A DNA stretch of 62,697 nt, filler included, from Globobulimina sp. (lineage: Eukaryota), in the NCBI GenBank assembly GCA_003354225.1. It is 36 parts of 36 records of this genome, joined end to end, with 100 filler letters (N's around TTAATTAATTAA, not from the genome) between each part and the next. Parts side by side here need not be neighbours in the genome. Positions count along the whole stretch, not along the records: positions 1 to 1,646 come from PIVH01013674.1; 35 more parts are not named here. The stretch is one strand, 5' to 3'. This document shows, in pieces, positions 749 to 60,954 of the stretch. The translations under genes and the position numbers were made by a program. Each line of letters opens with the position of its first letter. Positions within the stretch are counted from its first letter, which is position 1. Below the pieces are notes generated by a model. It was not told the DNA's origin, searched no databases, and worked only from the letters and a program-made list of their open reading frames with translations.

Positions 749-987
749 TAATCTAAATACAATCACTGTCATTGCGGCGGTTCGAGTGTCGCAATCACAA
801 TATCTCATTGCACAATGAACGTTGCACATGGTGCTTTTCAAAGGGGTTTTGCTGAAACGATGAAAAATTTGAACGTTGCTATCCTTGCACTCATCAAAGT
901 TCTCTCAAAACAGAAACACAAACACTTTCTTCTACACTTCCCGTTGAAATGATTCTAGTATTTTACCAAAAGGCAGTAATTTCGAGG

Positions 988-1090
988 CTAGGAACGTGTT
1001 TCCAAAAGGGGGCGCGTCTTTGGCGCGAAGCGCCGCGCACCCCGAGGCGGTGGGGATTTGGGCGTTTGGGAGGCGGTGGGGATCGCAATC
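988..1090 (-). mobile_element. GC-rich hairpin followed by CTAG, possible Helitron-type 3' end
   Basis: Minus strand reads GGGGTGCGC-GGCGCTTCGCGCC-AAAGAC-GCGCCCCC, then CTAG about 16 nt later. Direct repeat GAGGCGGTGGGGAT occurs twice. Confidence 0.4.
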
Positions 1091-1096
1091 CATATT

Positions 1097-1160
1097 GTGA
1101 TGATTGCTCAATGAGAGCATCTAATTAAATAAGATTTGGGTCCAAATCCCAATCACCACA
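1097..1160 (+). ncRNA. Minimal tRNA-like element / SINE head, copy 1
   Basis: GTGATGA TT GCTC-AATGA-GAGC, 17-nt anticodon region, TTGGG-TCCAAAT-CCCAA TCACCAC A, then T8. Homologous to 40577-40639. Confidence 0.75.
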
Positions 1161-1277
1161 TTTTTTTTGATTATCCCATGAGTTATTACATTTTTGTTCG
1201 TTTTATATAATGTTTTTTGTTTGTTTTGTTTGTTTTGCGTTTTTCGTTTCTATGTAAAGTGGCATATTATAATTAGA

Positions 1278-1399
1278 AGATAATATCCATTATAAATAAC
1301 ATAATAAAATATCGATTTAGCCAAAATTGCAATGGATTTGTTACCGTAGATTCCATTTTAAAGATCTAATGAGATTTCTATTTATAATGGATATTATCT
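1278..1399. repeat. Perfect 21-bp inverted repeat with 80-bp spacer
   Basis: AGATAATATCCATTATAAATA at 1278-1298 and its reverse complement at 1379-1399. Confidence 0.9.
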
Positions 1400-1457
1400 G
1401 TCATAATTTTAGCAAAAAAAATATAAACAAACCTGTATTAATGCGCCATACGCCAAT

Positions 1458-1526
1458 ATCTCACGCCAGGATTTGAACCTGGATTCCCTGCATAAAACAG
1501 TGCTCTACCAATTGAGCTACGTGAGA
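1458..1526 (-). tRNA. tRNA-like gene with short anticodon arm (possible anticodon UUA)
   Basis: TCTCACG TA GCTC AATTGGTA GAGC A CTG TTTTATG CAG GGAAT CCAGG TTCAAAT CCTGG CGTGAGA T. Acceptor, D and T stems pair perfectly and boxes A/B are canonical. Confidence 0.8.
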
Positions 1527-1646
1527 TTTATGCACCAGCAAATCACAGACAACAAAATGAATATGTTTTGTTGGTATATGGATATAAAAGCTAATGCTGA
1601 GGTGTTCGATAAGATCAGTACAAAACAAAAAAAACCTTTTCGAACA

Positions 1647-36544: not shown

Positions 36545-37012
36545 NNNNNNNNNNNNNNNNNNNNNNNNNNNNNNNNNNNNNNNNNNNNTTAATTAATTAA
36601 NNNNNNNNNNNNNNNNNNNNNNNNNNNNNNNNNNNNNNNNNNNNCGAACAAACCGTTCGAAATCCATATCAATAGTTGATATGTATCCTCTCTCTATATA
36701 TAGCTCTGGAGAGATTATTTAAGTCTTAATTTAATGATTTCTTGCAAAGCAAACAACTCAAAGGTCAAGAAAGTTAGATCAACAGTGCATAAATAATCTA
36801 AATACTGGTAATGGATGTGCGGTTTTATAATGTTTATAACCATTACATAAAAATTTCAAAGCAATTGATTTATAAATTGTATTTCTTGATTTTCTTCATT
36901 ACCTGCATGTTCTGCACAGGATATTTATGTTTCTGAAAAATAACCATAAAGTGCGCGCGTGTTAAAAACTCAACGTTAGTATTCTCATGAGAGTGTCCAT
37001 AATATAATGTTT

Positions 37013-37172
37013 AGATGTCCTATGCTAATATCCAAGCAATGCGAAATCCTAAAAACTGCATCCGAAAGATTCAGTTGTCATTGCAGCTATGTTGTTAATG
37101 TCAATGACAACTGAATGCTCCGGATGCTGTTTTTAGAATTTCGCATTGATTAGATATTGGCATAATACATCT
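37013..37172. repeat. Long imperfect inverted repeat 1 (71-bp arms, 18-nt loop)
   Basis: 37013-37083 versus 37102-37172: 61/71 complementary, no indels. Confidence 0.92.
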
Positions 37173-37507
37173 TAAGGATATTGATACGCCAAAAAATTCG
37201 TTTTTTCCATTTATGTGTCCATGAATATTTAATGTTTTTGATTCCAAATCTTGTCCTAATTTATTGCTAATGCTTGAAATATTGAATATTCAAGTAATGT
37301 TTTCTTACTGTTTTTATCTGTAAAAACAATGGAGTCTGGATTGGCAGAAGGATGGGATATGGAATGTATGGGATGCAGTTATGTTGTTAATGTTCAATAT
37401 TTCAAGCATTAGCAATAAATTAGGACAAGATTTAGTATCAAAAACATTAAATATTATGGACACAATTATGGAAAAAAACGAAATTTTTGGCGTATCAATA
37501 TCATTAA
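37172..37507. repeat. Long imperfect inverted repeat 2 (about 119-bp arms)
   Basis: 37172-37290 versus 37389-37507 are nearly fully complementary. Confidence 0.92.
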
Positions 37508-40132: not shown

Positions 40133-40215
40133 GTAGGTGGAGGATGTGTAGGTGGAGGATGTGTAGGTGGAGGATGTGTAGGTGGAGGATGTGTAGGTGG
40201 AGGATGTGTAGGTGA
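40133..40215 (+). repeat. 15-bp tandem repeat GTAGGTGGAGGATGT x5
   Basis: Directly visible at the contig start. Confidence 0.95.
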
Positions 40216-40576
40216 AGGCGGTGGGGGAGGTTATAAAGGATGAGGAAGAGGCTATGGCGGCATAGATTTATGACGCAAAAATTATTGTGATGATCACATC
40301 CATCCTTTTTGCTATTTTTTTTATAACATTTCTGAGAAAATGATGAATTTAAAGCTGATAAAGAACAGATAAAGGTCGTTATTTTCACTTTAAACTGCTC
40401 TAAAACAAGTGAAATGTGGTGACAGCAAACATATATGCGTTTATATTGTCCGTACGAATAGAATTTTGAAATGAATCAATATTGCTCTTCAAAATGCAAT
40501 TTTGAAAATATTAAATCTTGAAAATATAGGTTCTCCATTTCTCAGGAATATTATAAAAAAAAAATCAATGTGGATC

Positions 40577-40639
40577 GATGTGATAGCTCATTGAGAGCAT
40601 CTTATTAAAGAAGATTTGGGTTCAAATCCCATCATCACA
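40577..40639 (+). ncRNA. Minimal tRNA-like element / SINE head, copy 2
   Basis: TAGCTCATTGAGAGC ATCTT-ATTAAAG-AAGAT TTGGGTTCAAATCCCA TCATCACA, then a T-run. Confidence 0.75.
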
Positions 40640-40943
40640 TTTTTCTATTTATTTTTTTGTAATTTATTCTCTGCTTTTTGAGTCTCAAATTTCTGTTTTT
40701 TGTTTCTATTTTATATGGCATGTTTTTCGTTTCTATTTTATTAAATAAAACACTTCCATGTCTGCTATAAAAAACAAATAAAGTTACTTTTATGGCGTTT
40801 TTTGGACATAAAATAAGATTGTTTCCAGCTTGTACCATCAATTCTGGACGTGTACCAACTGCATTCAGGTTCTGAAACAAAAGTGATCGAAGACATGAAT
40901 TTGCAATAAACAGTCTTTTTCAAAAAAAAGGTACACTGTGTGA

Positions 40944-50596: not shown

Positions 50597-51645
50597 GATG
50601 TTGAACTCATATTTTCGACAGATCAACAATGGTGTCATCAAGTCAAGCTGATATTATCCGACTCATATTGTCGACAGCTGGACAACGTTGTTTAACTCAT
50701 ATTGTTGACAGGTAGACAATGATGTCAAACTCATATTGTCAACAGCTCGACAACAATGATGTCAAACTCGTTGACAACAATGTTGACAGGTCAACAATGT
50801 TGTTGAACTCATATTGTCAACAGGTCAACAATGATGTCCAACTCGTTGACAACAATTTTGGTTGACTCATATTGTCGACAGGTCAACAATGATATCAAGT
50901 CAAGCAATATTTGACAATGTTGAAAGGTCGACAACAATGTCAAACTGATATTGTTGACAGGTCGAAAACGATGTCGAACTCATATTGACAATGTCGACAG
51001 GTCGACAATGACTATGTTGACAGTTCGACAACTATCTCAAACTCATATGGTAGAGACAATGTTGACAGGTTGACAACGATGTAGAACTGGTAATGACATC
51101 GATGTTGACTCCTATTGTCGACAGGTCGACAACGATGTTGAACTCATATTGTCGACAGGTTGACAATGCTGTCAAACTCATATTGTCAACAGCTCAACAG
51201 CAATGTTGGAAGGTCGACAACATTGTTGAACTCATATCGAAAGGTTGACAACAATGATGTTGAACTCATATTGTCGACAGATCAACAATGGTGTCAAGTC
51301 AAGCTGATATTATCCGACTCATATTGTCGACAGCTGGACAACGATGTTTAACTCATATTGTTGACAGGTTGACAATGATGTCAAACTCATATTGTCAACA
51401 GCTCGACAACAATGATGTCAAACTCGTTGACAACAATGTTGACAGGTCAACAATGTCGTTGAACTCATATTGTGAACAGGTCAACAATGATGTCAAACTC
51501 ATATTGTCAACAGCTCAACAACAATGATGTCAAACTCGTTGACAACAATGTTGACAGGTTGACTCATATTGTCGACAGGTCAACAATGATATCAAGTCAA
51601 GCATTAGTTGACAATGTTGAAAGGTCGACAACAATGTCAAACTAC
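50597..51645. repeat. Complex satellite: about 34-bp unit with about 660-bp higher-order period
   Basis: Variants of TTGTCGACAGGTCGACAACGATGTTGAACTCATA. The block starting at 50597 recurs at about 51256. Confidence 0.93.
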
Positions 51646-52642
51646 ATTATAGTCAAGTTGAAATAGATGTTGACAATATAGACTAGACTACATCGTAGAC
51701 ATGTAGACTAAAGTATTGTACATCAATGTTGACATAATACTGTAGTATACTAGCATGTCACAATGTTAATGTGCAGGTTCACTGGATTTATGTTGAAACA
51801 TTAGTCAAATAGCAGAATAGCATGTAGCCTACATGGATGGAGGAGGATGGGCACCATAAATATAACTTTGTAAATTACTTTGATTGAGTATTTAAATTTT
51901 GCCACTCAACAAGAATTTAAGGAGGAGGATGGGCACCATCATCTAATTTTAAATTGACAGATTTACTGTTTATTTTAGATGCCTCAAGTTTTGCTGCTCC
52001 ACCTACTGTGATATATTGTAATATCAATACCAAATAGGACAGTAATCTGATGAAATACTGTAATAATATATAGTACTGTAATCCATGCAATGCTGTAATA
52101 CCATATAGTACCGATTTTATCTCATAATTCTGTAATCTTAGCATGTTACTGTTATGATGTTATAATGTAATTCTATGTCATAAATATTGTTAAAATAAAT
52201 TTTTAGACTTTTTATTTAAATTAAACGAAAATTGACGCANNNNNNNNNNNNNNNNNNNNNNNNNNNNNNNNNNNNNNNNNNNNTTAATTAATTAANNNNN
52301 NNNNNNNNNNNNNNNNNNNNNNNNNNNNNNNNNNNNNNNTCACCAATAAACTGCATCCAATTACATTTAATTGTGATGGATGATGGATGGAATGTGCCTC
52401 TACAATGAAAACACAATCGATTCGACCATCTGGGGGATTTTGCCAAAGAGTTATTGCCATGGTCAGCATACTTAGTTACAAAGTGAAGAACTCAAATGTT
52501 AGTAAAAATAGAAAATTTAAATGTTGATTGGGGGGATGAACTAAAAGCAAAAACCCTATTGTTGCCTGAAACAAACATGCATTTTTCAAACAAAAAATGC
52601 GAGATGATTCAAAACGTTGCTCTCTTCTCTGTTTCCCAAACC

Positions 52643-57393: not shown

Positions 57394-59931
57394 GGCTACT
57401 TAATAAAAAAGTAGGAAAAGTTTTTTTTTTTACGCATTTCCTTAAACCATTTTCTATTAAGTATAAATNNNNNNNNNNNNNNNNNNNNNNNNNNNNNNNN
57501 NNNNNNNNNNNNTTAATTAATTAANNNNNNNNNNNNNNNNNNNNNNNNNNNNNNNNNNNNNNNNNNNNACACATACAAAGATATGAGACAATTACCAATT
57601 TTCAAACCTCTGACTGGCTACCAAACCTAGAGACAGCCTTTTCCACTTAGATTCTTCTGCACTTCCTGACCTTATAATAATAATAATCATCGATTTGTGT
57701 CGATGTAACAAAGTCTAAGTGGAAAAATGATCAAAATAAACACTCGTTACAATAAAGAACAGCTATAAATGTTGATGTTAGGGAGTCATTCCATTATTTT
57801 CATTTCTTTAAAAGCTGTTCAAAATGAAGTAGGATAAATGTTTAAATTTAAAAAAGTTATTAATTTTTTTTGATTGTCGGGATCCAACCTCCCATGGCTT
57901 ATAAGATCTGCTGTCTGAGTGGCTGCAAGATATAGAAACAGAATTTTCTACTTATACTATATTATGCAAGAGGCAAATAAAATAACGATGTAAAATATAA
58001 ATGATGTAAAGCGGAGAGCCACGCAAAGGGTTCTCATAAGAATTCGACTTTTTAACACAGCGGTATTCAGTAATTAATGTAACATGTTTGGTTCAAAAAA
58101 TAGACCCTAATCTTCAGCAGGCTGTAATTCATGACTAGCCGTACCTGACATAGTTTTTATGTCCCAATATGATTCTGCAATAACATTTGAGTGTGAAGTG
58201 AGAAAATCGGCGTTTTTGTATTCAAAAATGATTTTTTGTCATTTTCGGCCTATTTTTGGGTTAATTATGGGAGATCCGCCATTGTTATAGACTCGTACTT
58301 ATGGCTAGATATATTCTTTATGCCATATACCATTCGTGCAAAGCCATATTACCAGCTTGTAACGCTTTCGGTTGCTCAAATCGCATGCTCAGTATGACAA
58401 CAAACAATATTGCGCAGATTAGTGTTTGAAGTACTAAAACAATCAAAACTGTCTACTTTTCTTACAATTTGATTAAAAGTAATCAATTCGAACCAAAAAC
58501 AAGCTGCAATGCGTATAGAATCAAACAATTTTCCTTTCTGAAGCGTATTTTGGGCAATATTCGGGAAAAACCTGAAAATCGCATATACTTAAAACGCACT
58601 TTCTCAAAACGCCACAGTCTGATTTTCTTCATTTTTGCTTTGGTTAATGCTATCATATAGTGATATAAGATACAAAAAATTGGCTCCGGCTATTCATAAA
58701 TGGCCGAGTAATGAAGCAAAATGTAAAAAAATCTAAAACTCAATTTCCGATATTTTTTTTGTTTTCGACCCTGAATCATGGATAAAAATAATTCATTTTT
58801 AAACATTTAATACACTAACTGAAAGTCTGTGTAAAGGGCTGTCCAATGGTGGTACGTTTAATTCCCTAGCTAGCAAACGTGCTGAGTTACAACCATTCAA
58901 ATTCGATGTGGTATGTTTCGGAGAAATTGCCGAAGTTCCCAACTTTGAGGCTGCCGTGCTCAGAACAGGGAGAGCGCCGGAATCTCAAACTTGACGTGTG
59001 ATCTTACATTTACTTATACTATAGAAACGTGAAATAAAAAGTGGGGGTCAAAATTTTTCTGTCCGGAAAATCTTTGAATTTCAAAATAACGACTGTTAAT
59101 GAATCTAACTTTCGAACGAATGCTTCGATCGCGATGAAACTTGGTATGCTTAGGTAATGGGCCATGACCAATAACTACACAACATATCATTTCATCTCAA
59201 CGCTTAGCATGNNNNNNNNNNNNNNNNNNNNNNNNNNNNNNNNNNNNNNNNNNNNTTAATTAATTAANNNNNNNNNNNNNNNNNNNNNNNNNNNNNNNNN
59301 NNNNNNNNNNNGATAATATTCAAATCAGCGGTTTAGGTCCGAGCCAAGCATCGCAATTAATATCGTTATTGAATCAATTGCAAAGAAATAATCAGCAGCA
59401 ACCGCAAAATGTGTCATCTATGCAGCAATTGAATAACTTCGTGGCATCGCAAGGCATCGCTGGTAATGATAATTATGACTATCAGGTAACGGTTGAAGAT
59501 AGGAAGAAAGTCTTGAAATGGATAATGCCGAAAGCTTCGAGACGTTTGATCACAGAGTCAATCTCCGAGAATGTCGATGTATTATACGACATTGTTAAAA
59601 GAAACCCAAATTGCAGCAAGTATGTAATAATTTGTGTAATATGTTGCAAATCTGTGTGTACGTTGGATGGCACTCTTTGTGGCGAGTCAGAGTGTATTCA
59701 TACCTTTGAATATCTGTTTGATGTTTGTTATTCCTCACTAACTTTTACTGGTTGCGAGTTTGAGGAAAGTGAGGATGTTGAGACATTCATCTATTTTGAA
59801 TCCATTGTTGTGGATAGCATTATAAATATGGTCGGACTTACCCTGCATTTGTGTTGTTGTGGGTGCAGCAATAAATAAATGTGAAATGGAAGTCGAGTGA
59901 TTCTGTGTGCTACTCCTAAATAAATTGATTA

Positions 59932-60954
59932 TTGATCAATATTATCAAAATTAATATGTATTTACAAAATAAATATAAAAATAAAGTACAAGCATATAAT
60001 ACAAAGAAAATGGAGACTGATGGCATCTTAATAGCGAAAAAAGTTGAAATTGACATCTCAGTGAATCAATTAATGCATTTTTTGTTGGATGGATATGGTT
60101 CGATATTCTCTTTGATAAAAATAATGTGGATTTCTTATTGGAAATTGCATTTGGTATTCGGTACCACGTTAAAAAAGGCAATGACAGCATTCTTGATGAA
60201 TAAATCGAATTTTTTGATCGTATGGAGAACTGTGACGGAGAGAGTGATTGATATTTTATGGTCGAATTCTGCAGCAAATCCAAATCAAGGTCGCATGATA
60301 TCGTATTGCATGAATAATTTGCGTGTAATGAGAGATTTTGTGAAACTTAATATTGTTCCAATGATTAATGATCGAAGTATTGCTGTACCCGATTTTTGGC
60401 AGATTACTGCCATTGCTTTCTCTGTCTGCAAATATCGCGAATATAATAAACAAAAACGTATTCAATGGAATACCGCGGAGTTTATGCATGATTGGAATCA
60501 AATGCGTAAATCGCGGGAAAAATCAGTGTTGGTAATTCAGGATCTTTCGACTGAATGCATACAGGCACTTAATTTTGGTGGTAATTGTGTGCAGCAACAA
60601 CCTGAGCAAAAACAGAATGATTTGAAGCAGCATAATAATGAGAAGAGAAAGGTAGATTGCTTTGTATGTGGCGGAAATCACTGGAAAAAGGATTGTCCGA
60701 TACATTTAAAGAGAGAATTGAAGGAATTGAGGTATAAACAGAGGAACAACAAACCGTTTGAGAGAAGAAGAGATAATGAGACATTTAGACCGTATAAAAG
60801 GAGGAAGCCAAATAATTCGGAGTATGCTGCGCGTCGAAGATTTGATGTTAATAAAAATAAGAAATATGACTATGGAAATGGTCGGAGGTCGGATAGGCGT
60901 AATAACCGTGGCTATGAGCGTCGAGATAGAGGCCATGAGCGACGTAATCGTGGC
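59932..60954 (+). mobile_element. Gag-like ORF with CCHC zinc knuckle (partial)
   Basis: CFVCGGNHWKKDC followed by an R/G-rich tail. No pol on the contig. Confidence 0.5.

Follow-up and report, generated by a model that had tools for sequence, protein, structure and literature searches.

The locus examined here raises the question of what a short, tRNA-like unit is, given that it stands in closely similar copies on different contigs of the foraminiferan Globobulimina sp., and by what means it spreads. The window, that is, the whole 62,697-nucleotide stretch of DNA that was analysed, consists of 36 short contigs of ~1.65 kb each with N spacers between them, taken from an assembly (G000) of 70.2 Mb over 48,370 contigs. 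For a phosphatase in the window the best named relative is Reticulomyxa filosa (77% identity, E 3e-47), which points to a foraminifer as the probable source. An earlier note had described a recurrent minimal tRNA-like element in this sequence, at 1101-1160 and 40581-40639, and the comparison holds: the two copies, on contigs G000:C13674 (copy 1) and C13697 (copy 2), differ at 7 of 60 aligned columns (6 substitutions and 1 gap), align across 159 columns in a self-BLAST (E 1.7e-16) and have a 15-nt downstream motif in common. The GCTC/GAGC D stem, T arm and oligo-T run that had been reported are likewise present in the sequence, as is the 17-nt spacing between the D and T stems, which is found in both copies and holds in 78 of 89 cores.

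The true extent of copy 1 is 1097-1160, followed directly by eight T residues, and copy 2 is broken by a 288-bp insert that the earlier note overlooked (Table 1). Copy 1 folds with a 7-bp acceptor stem (one mismatch), a 4-bp D stem, a 5-nt D loop, a 17-nt middle, a 5-bp T stem, a T loop with the TCC variant and a discriminator A, and it scores 88.6 bits against the family model, in which copy 1 is itself included; a cloverleaf-like fold was also obtained for copy 2. Neither copy is called by ARAGORN. Copy 2 scores 27.6 bits, below the Rfam tRNA gathering score of 29, and copy 1 is absent from the 12 Rfam matches at E values up to 10. The inverted repeat of the insert is 83% identical over 47 bp, and an independent paralog on G000:C39320 (87% identical, with different flanks) rules out the interruption as a tRNA intron. 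A MITE-like insert of this kind also lies at L232:322-583, the apparent 2-bp duplications being AT in the window and AA in L232. Both window copies are damaged and probably inert.

Table 1. Features surrounding the two copies of the 64-nt unit, in positions of the window.
Feature	Position	Strand	Basis or remark
Upstream terminal module, carrier A	956..1007	+	96% match to L096 terminal module; begins TAGTATTTT
G+C-rich remnant of internal hairpin/minisatellite region, with A/T-rich leader	1008..1096	+	Sequence
tRNA-like core, copy 1, 64 nt	1097..1160	+	Sequence, fold, family model
Oligo-T run, Pol III terminator-like	1161..1168	+	Sequence
T-rich body of carrier A, including 15-nt motif 1239-1253	1169..1253	+	Truncated; usual downstream end absent
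Part of second repeat, tail to tail with first	1254..1646	-	Holds another degenerate tRNA-like unit, 1457-1527
G-rich minisatellite and leader, carrier of copy 2	40133..40286	+	Similar arrays upstream of L004, L012, L266
Orphaned initial 8 bases, core copy 2	40287..40294	+	Alignment of copies
MITE-like insert, 288 bp, CAC...GTG ends	40295..40582	.	~47-bp imperfect inverted repeats; 2-bp AT repeat flanking
Rest of core copy 2, D arm to acceptor 3' strand	40583..40639	+	T stem one base short
Oligo-T 40640-40644, body, motif 40722-40736, sharp carrier A downstream end	40640..40812	+	Ends TAAA at 40812

A BLAST search of G000, the copy count that had been proposed beforehand, returned many copies rather than two: 178 candidates, with all 40 of those scored matching at E 2e-19 or better. 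Exact-pattern searches gave 62 matches with a narrow pattern and 132 with a wider one, and the reversed control gave 0 for both; all these counts are lower bounds. A two-copy segmental duplication, the outcome that the note had named as fatal to its reading, is ruled out by these at least 132 dispersed matches with their diverse flanks. The high copy number that had been claimed is thus real, but its basis, two hits in 59 kb, overstates the assembled density, since 132 matches in 70.2 Mb amount to ~1.9 per Mb. A viral origin is ruled out by the absence of pattern matches (0) among viral contigs. Outside G000, three matches were found in one metagenome record set, with flanking repeats as in G000, and six in the prokaryote collection, where every one lies on a contig of 0.6-1.6 kb from a single MAG and is flanked by the repeats that carry the core in G000 (here called carriers); a bacterial origin is rejected, the six contigs being read as mis-binned eukaryotic DNA. 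These contigs (L275-L280), from a Gammaproteobacteria MAG, hold a eukaryotic repeat plus carriers, which suggests that host DNA has entered that bin. Within G000, tRNA genes with encoded CCA ends (L030-L033, L037 and L049) suggest bacterial contigs in the assembly. A context with a broken acceptor stem and no recognised carrier (L102, L122, L271 and L277) is shared by G000, the MAG and run X2 of another study. Depth over the core shows a peak in contig set X1, which we do not take as a copy number, and nothing in X3.

The nature of the core was assessed from 90 distinct full-length cores from fetched loci, a few of which are possibly metagenome-derived. The box A- and box B-like motifs described for the unit are borne out, with an A-box-like start in 23 of 36 by a strict motif and an intact B-box core in 58 of 90 (a TCC variant, shared by copy 1, occurs in 24 of 90), and a run of at least four T directly follows 79 of the 90. 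An encoded CCA is found in none of them. The description of the unit as having no variable loop and the anticodon UAA represents one parse only: among 78 cores the nominal anticodon is TAA in 46, TGA in 14, TCA in 9, GAA in 5, CAA in 2, TTA in 1 and AAA in 1, so that UAA is the commonest triplet yet is not conserved. The context of position 33 and the length of the anticodon arm vary as well. The arm lacks a conserved 5-bp stem and 7-nt loop and is poorly paired; of all the helices its putative 4-bp stem has the poorest support (88.9% paired and no double change), and RNAalifold leaves it out and shifts the T arm. Ahead of the T stem stands AAGAT, which is similar to the variable region (AGATT) that tRNA-Arg(CCT) and tRNA-Trp have in this assembly; what has shrunk may therefore be the anticodon arm, not the variable loop.

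Since the anticodon is variable and CCA is not encoded, the 64-nt unit cannot, as judged from its sequence, be a decoding tRNA. The related proposals of a functional minimal tRNA (Leu-UAA) and of a mitochondrial tRNA transferred to the nucleus draw on the cloverleaf-like fold of copy 2 and its Rfam score, but are largely refuted, and almost certainly wrong, in view of the seven nominal anticodons, the variable position 33 context and arm length, the failure of ARAGORN to find either copy and the presence of ordinary tRNA genes in G000 (57 matches among 63 scored candidates). An organellar match, which the earlier note had raised against itself, is most improbable, as the flanks are nuclear repeats; in addition, the accessible portions of the relevant papers describe retarian mitogenomes without tRNA genes (PMC10127745) or with a single trnK (PMC13421374).

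The fold, as distinct from the anticodon, covaries among the copies. D-stem pair 13-22 is C-G in 67, U-A in 31, U-G in 1 and C-A in 1 of 100 listed matches, counted by hand at positions that were both unconstrained in the search pattern; the U-A state arose at least twice, most of its count tracing back to a single inherited change. Three acceptor pairs also show double changes, and 0 of 500 shuffles reach the observed values in a control that ignores relatedness. By parsimony, 36 BLAST-found copies (the 40 hits minus the truncated L017 and L104 and the insertion-bearing L019 and L125) have changed 18 times at their 40 stem positions and 30 times at the 24 unpaired ones (p 4e-4). The covariation of the D stem implies that source copies keep the fold. 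Individual copies do not share this integrity: of the 16 kinds of stem change among 31 distinct BLAST-found copies, 12 disrupt pairing, and one acceptor arm is absent in 15 of 76 copies. To judge from the aligned copies, single copies decay and source lineages keep the fold.

These data bear on the possibility that the copies are true Pol III genes of the host, encoding a ~64-nt non-decoding tRNA mimic (cut by RNase P and Z, with CCA added), whose capture by transposons is passive. A precedent of this size exists in mascRNA and menRNA, ~60-nt tRNA-like RNAs cut by RNase P and RNase Z that are single-locus parts of vertebrate long RNAs; the likeness extends to the acceptor/D/T architecture and the reduced anticodon arm and implies no sequence relation, and Rfam gives no mascRNA or menRNA match for the unit. 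The complete gene anatomy (A box, B box, terminator, discriminator A), the compensatory changes in the acceptor and D stems and the copies without a recognised carrier, of which the L102/L122-type context recurs in run X2 and a further record, would all suit a host gene. No canonical master gene was found, however, and most copies lie inside repeats; the preponderance of stem changes that break pairing, the destruction of copy 2 by an insertion and the truncation of several other copies likewise argue against this explanation, which we consider quite improbable.

The surroundings of the core are far less uniform than the core itself. Across 7 representatives of six flank groups, core identity is 83-95%, versus 36-61% for the 150-nt flanks (shuffled baseline 48%); conservation begins at an 8-nt A/T leader directly upstream of the core. 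Assignment of 117 cores places 41 in carrier A, to which the window copies belong, and 38 in other groups, with 13 having too little flank and 25 unassigned. Core pairs in inverted, facing orientation, ~300 bases apart, occur at L088:143-520 and L089:790-1127.

In carrier A, homology extends on both sides of the core, reaching up to ~700 bases upstream. The downstream end is sharp, reads TAAA and lies ~170-300 bases from the core start, and 46 distinct ends of this type were collected, each with unrelated DNA beyond it, as is also the case for copy 2. On the upstream side, G+C-rich hairpin units stand in arrays; beyond these come, in turn, the downstream end repeated in inverted orientation, a long palindrome and a terminus that starts TAGTATTTT. 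Fourteen distinct upstream ends were found, one being the terminal module in the window, which corresponds to the left arm of the long terminal palindrome, the remainder having been deleted in the carrier of copy 1; the final 40 bases of the adjoining remnant and leader are common to L002 and related to L011 and L096. Inverted repeats of 14 bp, one terminal and one inner, are present in 3 of 3 complete copies, with subfamily variants matched on both sides, and are accompanied by a palindrome beyond the inner repeat and by central tandem repeats. Copies also stand in head-to-tail tandem (L007 and L131). A 245-bp deletion form, L191, combines the two termini with the core's 3' tip in one short insertion; it lies in a reading frame, and the repeated peptide of that frame suggests that no target was duplicated. 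A search for the empty site of L191 recovered only L191 itself, and two empty-site-like paralogs are consistent with an absent target duplication while still compatible with one of 2-3 bp.

This anatomy bears most directly on the earlier suggestion of a SINE or small-RNA family, of which the multi-copy, tRNA-derived nature and conserved fold are upheld and the free-standing status is not. Specifically, the unit might be the common head of a superfamily of LINE-copied retroposons with different bodies, some of them later captured by DNA transposons. The available text on tRNA-derived SINEs (SINE2) describes a layout of head, body and LINE-related tail (PMC8010984, PMC10886601), and the present unit resembles them in being a tRNA-related, non-decoding A/B-box unit with many dispersed copies and different bodies behind a common head. 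Each group moreover has its own body and fixed downstream end, conservation starts at the A/T leader, many copies are truncated upstream, groups X, Y and W often start just 10-15 bases before the core, and in group Z the oligo-T is absent, so that Pol III could read on. Against a SINE, the T run behind 79 of 90 cores should stop Pol III ahead of the body. Upstream DNA is co-amplified, with homology 150-700 bases upstream of the core in carriers A, B, C and Y, in which the tRNA-related region is thus not the 5' end of the mobile unit. Carrier A has neither tail nor target duplication: an A run occurs at 1 of 50 ends, and the target duplications expected of a SINE, sought at a length of at least nine bases, do not exceed chance (2 of 38 ends versus 1.4 expected). 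Finally, an inverted partner of carrier A's downstream end lies upstream, and the end of group Z is an inverted-repeat end, with ANT in 20/20 and a true AAT duplication in L064. We regard the SINE superfamily as unlikely, if less so than a host gene.

Carrier A is, in its organisation, built most like a non-autonomous Helitron2/Helentron; it would work like an HLE2 element without being filed as a member. HINE/DINE-1 elements are described as non-autonomous Helentrons (HLE2) in those parts of the literature that were accessible (PMC4067079, PMC7492417, PMC11417382, PMC5148889), the HINE description being found in the first two and the HLE2 definition, with DUF6570 named as an HLE2 marker, in the third. 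The points of agreement comprise the 14-bp inverted repeats, one terminal and one inset from the other end with a palindrome beyond, the central tandem repeats, the tandem copies, the lack of target duplication and the HLE2-type proteins in the genome. In contrast, the palindrome is much longer, the T-T insertion rule does not hold at the palindrome end (an outcome that depends on boundary placement), and no autonomous partner was found. The base beside the palindrome end is C in 4, A in 5, T in 4 and G in 1 of 14 cases, and the other side always abuts A/T. G000 encodes RepHel proteins (23 matches among 29 scored); their contigs end inside genes, and comparison of the 23 RepHel loci with the other loci gave no shared terminal match. 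Long open RepHel frames occur at L193:232-3087, L194:334-3135 and L195:2-3124, in which the domains are SUMO-like in one, DUF6570 plus zinc fingers in one and a PIF1 helicase in one. The palindrome end of carrier A also resembles ANT-flanked inverted-repeat ends, and its class is therefore unsettled. A tRNA-like unit is a further difference, none being described for HINE/DINE-1 in the accessible text ('tRNA' is absent from that of PMC7492417), and, according to the portion of PMC3879986 at hand, neither DTC84 nor pearl was found to have complete Pol III boxes.

The same core occurs in other carriers of a different build. Group B is a ~1.3-kb element with 45-bp inverted CAC...GTG ends (the ends were observed on different contigs), and groups C, W, X and Y each combine the core with their own bodies. 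In group Z the core lies upstream of the inverted-repeat end, after which ANT follows; examples with the core upstream of an ANT-type end are L251, L261 and L127. In L064 both ends are present with AAT on both sides, so that carrier Z has terminal inverted repeats and a short target duplication, and the ANT target duplication is one that we take to denote PHIS/Pangu. Group X has a 7-base motif on both sides, and a Replitron was considered for it; in the part of PMC10288648 that was available, Replitrons are given short direct end repeats.

A frame at 24493-25044 (-) in the window encodes a DDE_Tnp_4 (Harbinger-type) domain (E 4.6e-15) and is a candidate for the class of mobiliser of ANT-type elements. 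Another, at 59929-60945 (+), has a CCHC zinc-knuckle-like motif, presumably gag-like, and no Pfam match at E 0.001. Self-BLAST of the window also shows long imperfect palindromes and a ~1-kb tandem repeat at 37010-37507 and 50597-51673.

The window holds a second tRNA-like family. The unit at 1457-1527 (-) is called 'tRNA-Stop (TTA)' by ARAGORN and scores 53.9 bits with the Rfam tRNA model; it belongs to a degenerate family of many copies (all 40 candidates scored match) in which the anticodon arm is shortened, and it sits in an ANT-type inverted-repeat element. An altered genetic code was rejected as its explanation, as long open frames fit the standard code and the unit is itself a variable repeat. 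The element in L064 likewise carries this second family, and two independent tRNA mimics thus ride in inverted-repeat elements. Degenerate units of a third type, with a different T stem, were seen at L036:1693-1763 (-) and L025:598-682, one of them directly behind a core of the first family.

The presence of one core in several carriers could also be neutral: a tRNA fragment captured once would have been spread in recent times by nesting and gene conversion, unselected, with the double changes arising from DNA hairpin repair. The carriers are indeed nested, tandem and chimeric, the independent double changes are few (4 pairs), and template switching can correct stems in palindromic DNA. The core is nonetheless far better kept than the flanks within one carrier (divergence among 26 carrier-A copies of 6.8% versus 25.7% in the last 100 bases), a U-G intermediate is found in a lineage that reaches U-A (L007 versus L238 and L246), and changes cluster in loops. 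Neutral cargo therefore appears very improbable.

We favour, with moderate confidence, the interpretation that the unit is a tRNA-derived, putative Pol III module that is carried and maintained by DNA transposons. The 64-nt unit would descend from a tRNA and have shrunk, losing the decoding anticodon arm while retaining both Pol III boxes (A and B), the terminator and the acceptor, D and T stems. It may first have been picked up from a tRNA gene or a SINE head and then swapped between carriers via nesting and recombination, spreading as an internal module of non-autonomous DNA transposons, of which carrier A would be moved in trans by rolling-circle proteins and others have terminal inverted repeats. 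TFIIIC is recruited by A and B boxes, a run of T terminates transcription by Pol III, and open chromatin is maintained by tRNA genes. On this view, selection would act in source elements to preserve a unit that is transcribed by Pol III and folds like a tRNA, the likeliest reason being that an element occupied by TFIIIC/Pol III stays open and can be mobilised. A promoter needs boxes and not stems, and since the stems covary, opening of chromatin should not be the whole explanation; the covariation hints at a processed RNA. Several observations sit less well with a transposon-borne module: no autonomous element with the carrier ends was found among the 23 RepHel loci compared, carrier A departs from the T-T rule, the starts of groups X, Y and W are SINE-like, 25 of 117 cores are unassigned, and the B box is altered (TCC) in 24 of 90.

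Compared with known systems, what is new here is the carrier ends around a familiar kind of tRNA-derived repeat. The arrangement departs from SINE2 in the terminator-like T run directly behind the unit, the co-amplified upstream DNA, the DNA-transposon-like ends and, in carrier A, the missing tail and target duplication. The TRIMp3 elements, as presented in the accessible part of PMC10886601, include Helenus, whose LTRs hold a tRNA-like sequence, and Cassandra and Ajax, with 5S-like ones; captured small-RNA sequences are there proposed as promoters in mobile elements, and DNA transposons are unmentioned in that part. Carriers and TRIMp3 share a non-autonomous nature and an internal, small-RNA-derived Pol III module, the origin of which was proposed, for TRIMp3, to be SINE insertion. 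TRIMp3 elements are LTR retroelements that need an RNA template, whereas the carriers here are DNA-transposon-like and without LTRs, and their stems covary; no LTR pair of the TRIMp3 type was found, complete carrier-A copies having one core between inverted rather than direct repeats. The literature searched, with Repbase, Dfam, supplements and most subscription journals outside its scope, yielded neither a description of a covarying tRNA mimic carried in DNA transposons nor a paper on foraminiferan SINEs or tRNA modules in such transposons.

Repeats derived from tRNAs are ordinary; less so is one that is better conserved than any other part of its elements, which seem to move as DNA and should therefore do without an RNA template. 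A bolder and rather doubtful extension is that, in foraminifera, several unrelated superfamilies of non-autonomous DNA transposons have each taken up a putative transcribed, tRNA-folded Pol III mini-gene and are under selection to retain it. The tRNA mimic (and a second, independent one) would then act as a transferable permit to move or to evade silencing, and might yield a processed 64-nt RNA. At a practical level, the unit and its sister family are a likely source of false tRNA calls in foraminiferan assemblies, including a 'stop-suppressor' tRNA. If source elements do need the module, small-RNA-derived promoters would extend from SINEs and LTR miniatures to DNA transposons, and a connection between Pol III occupancy and the survival of transposons could be put to the test in a lineage whose repeats are scarcely annotated.
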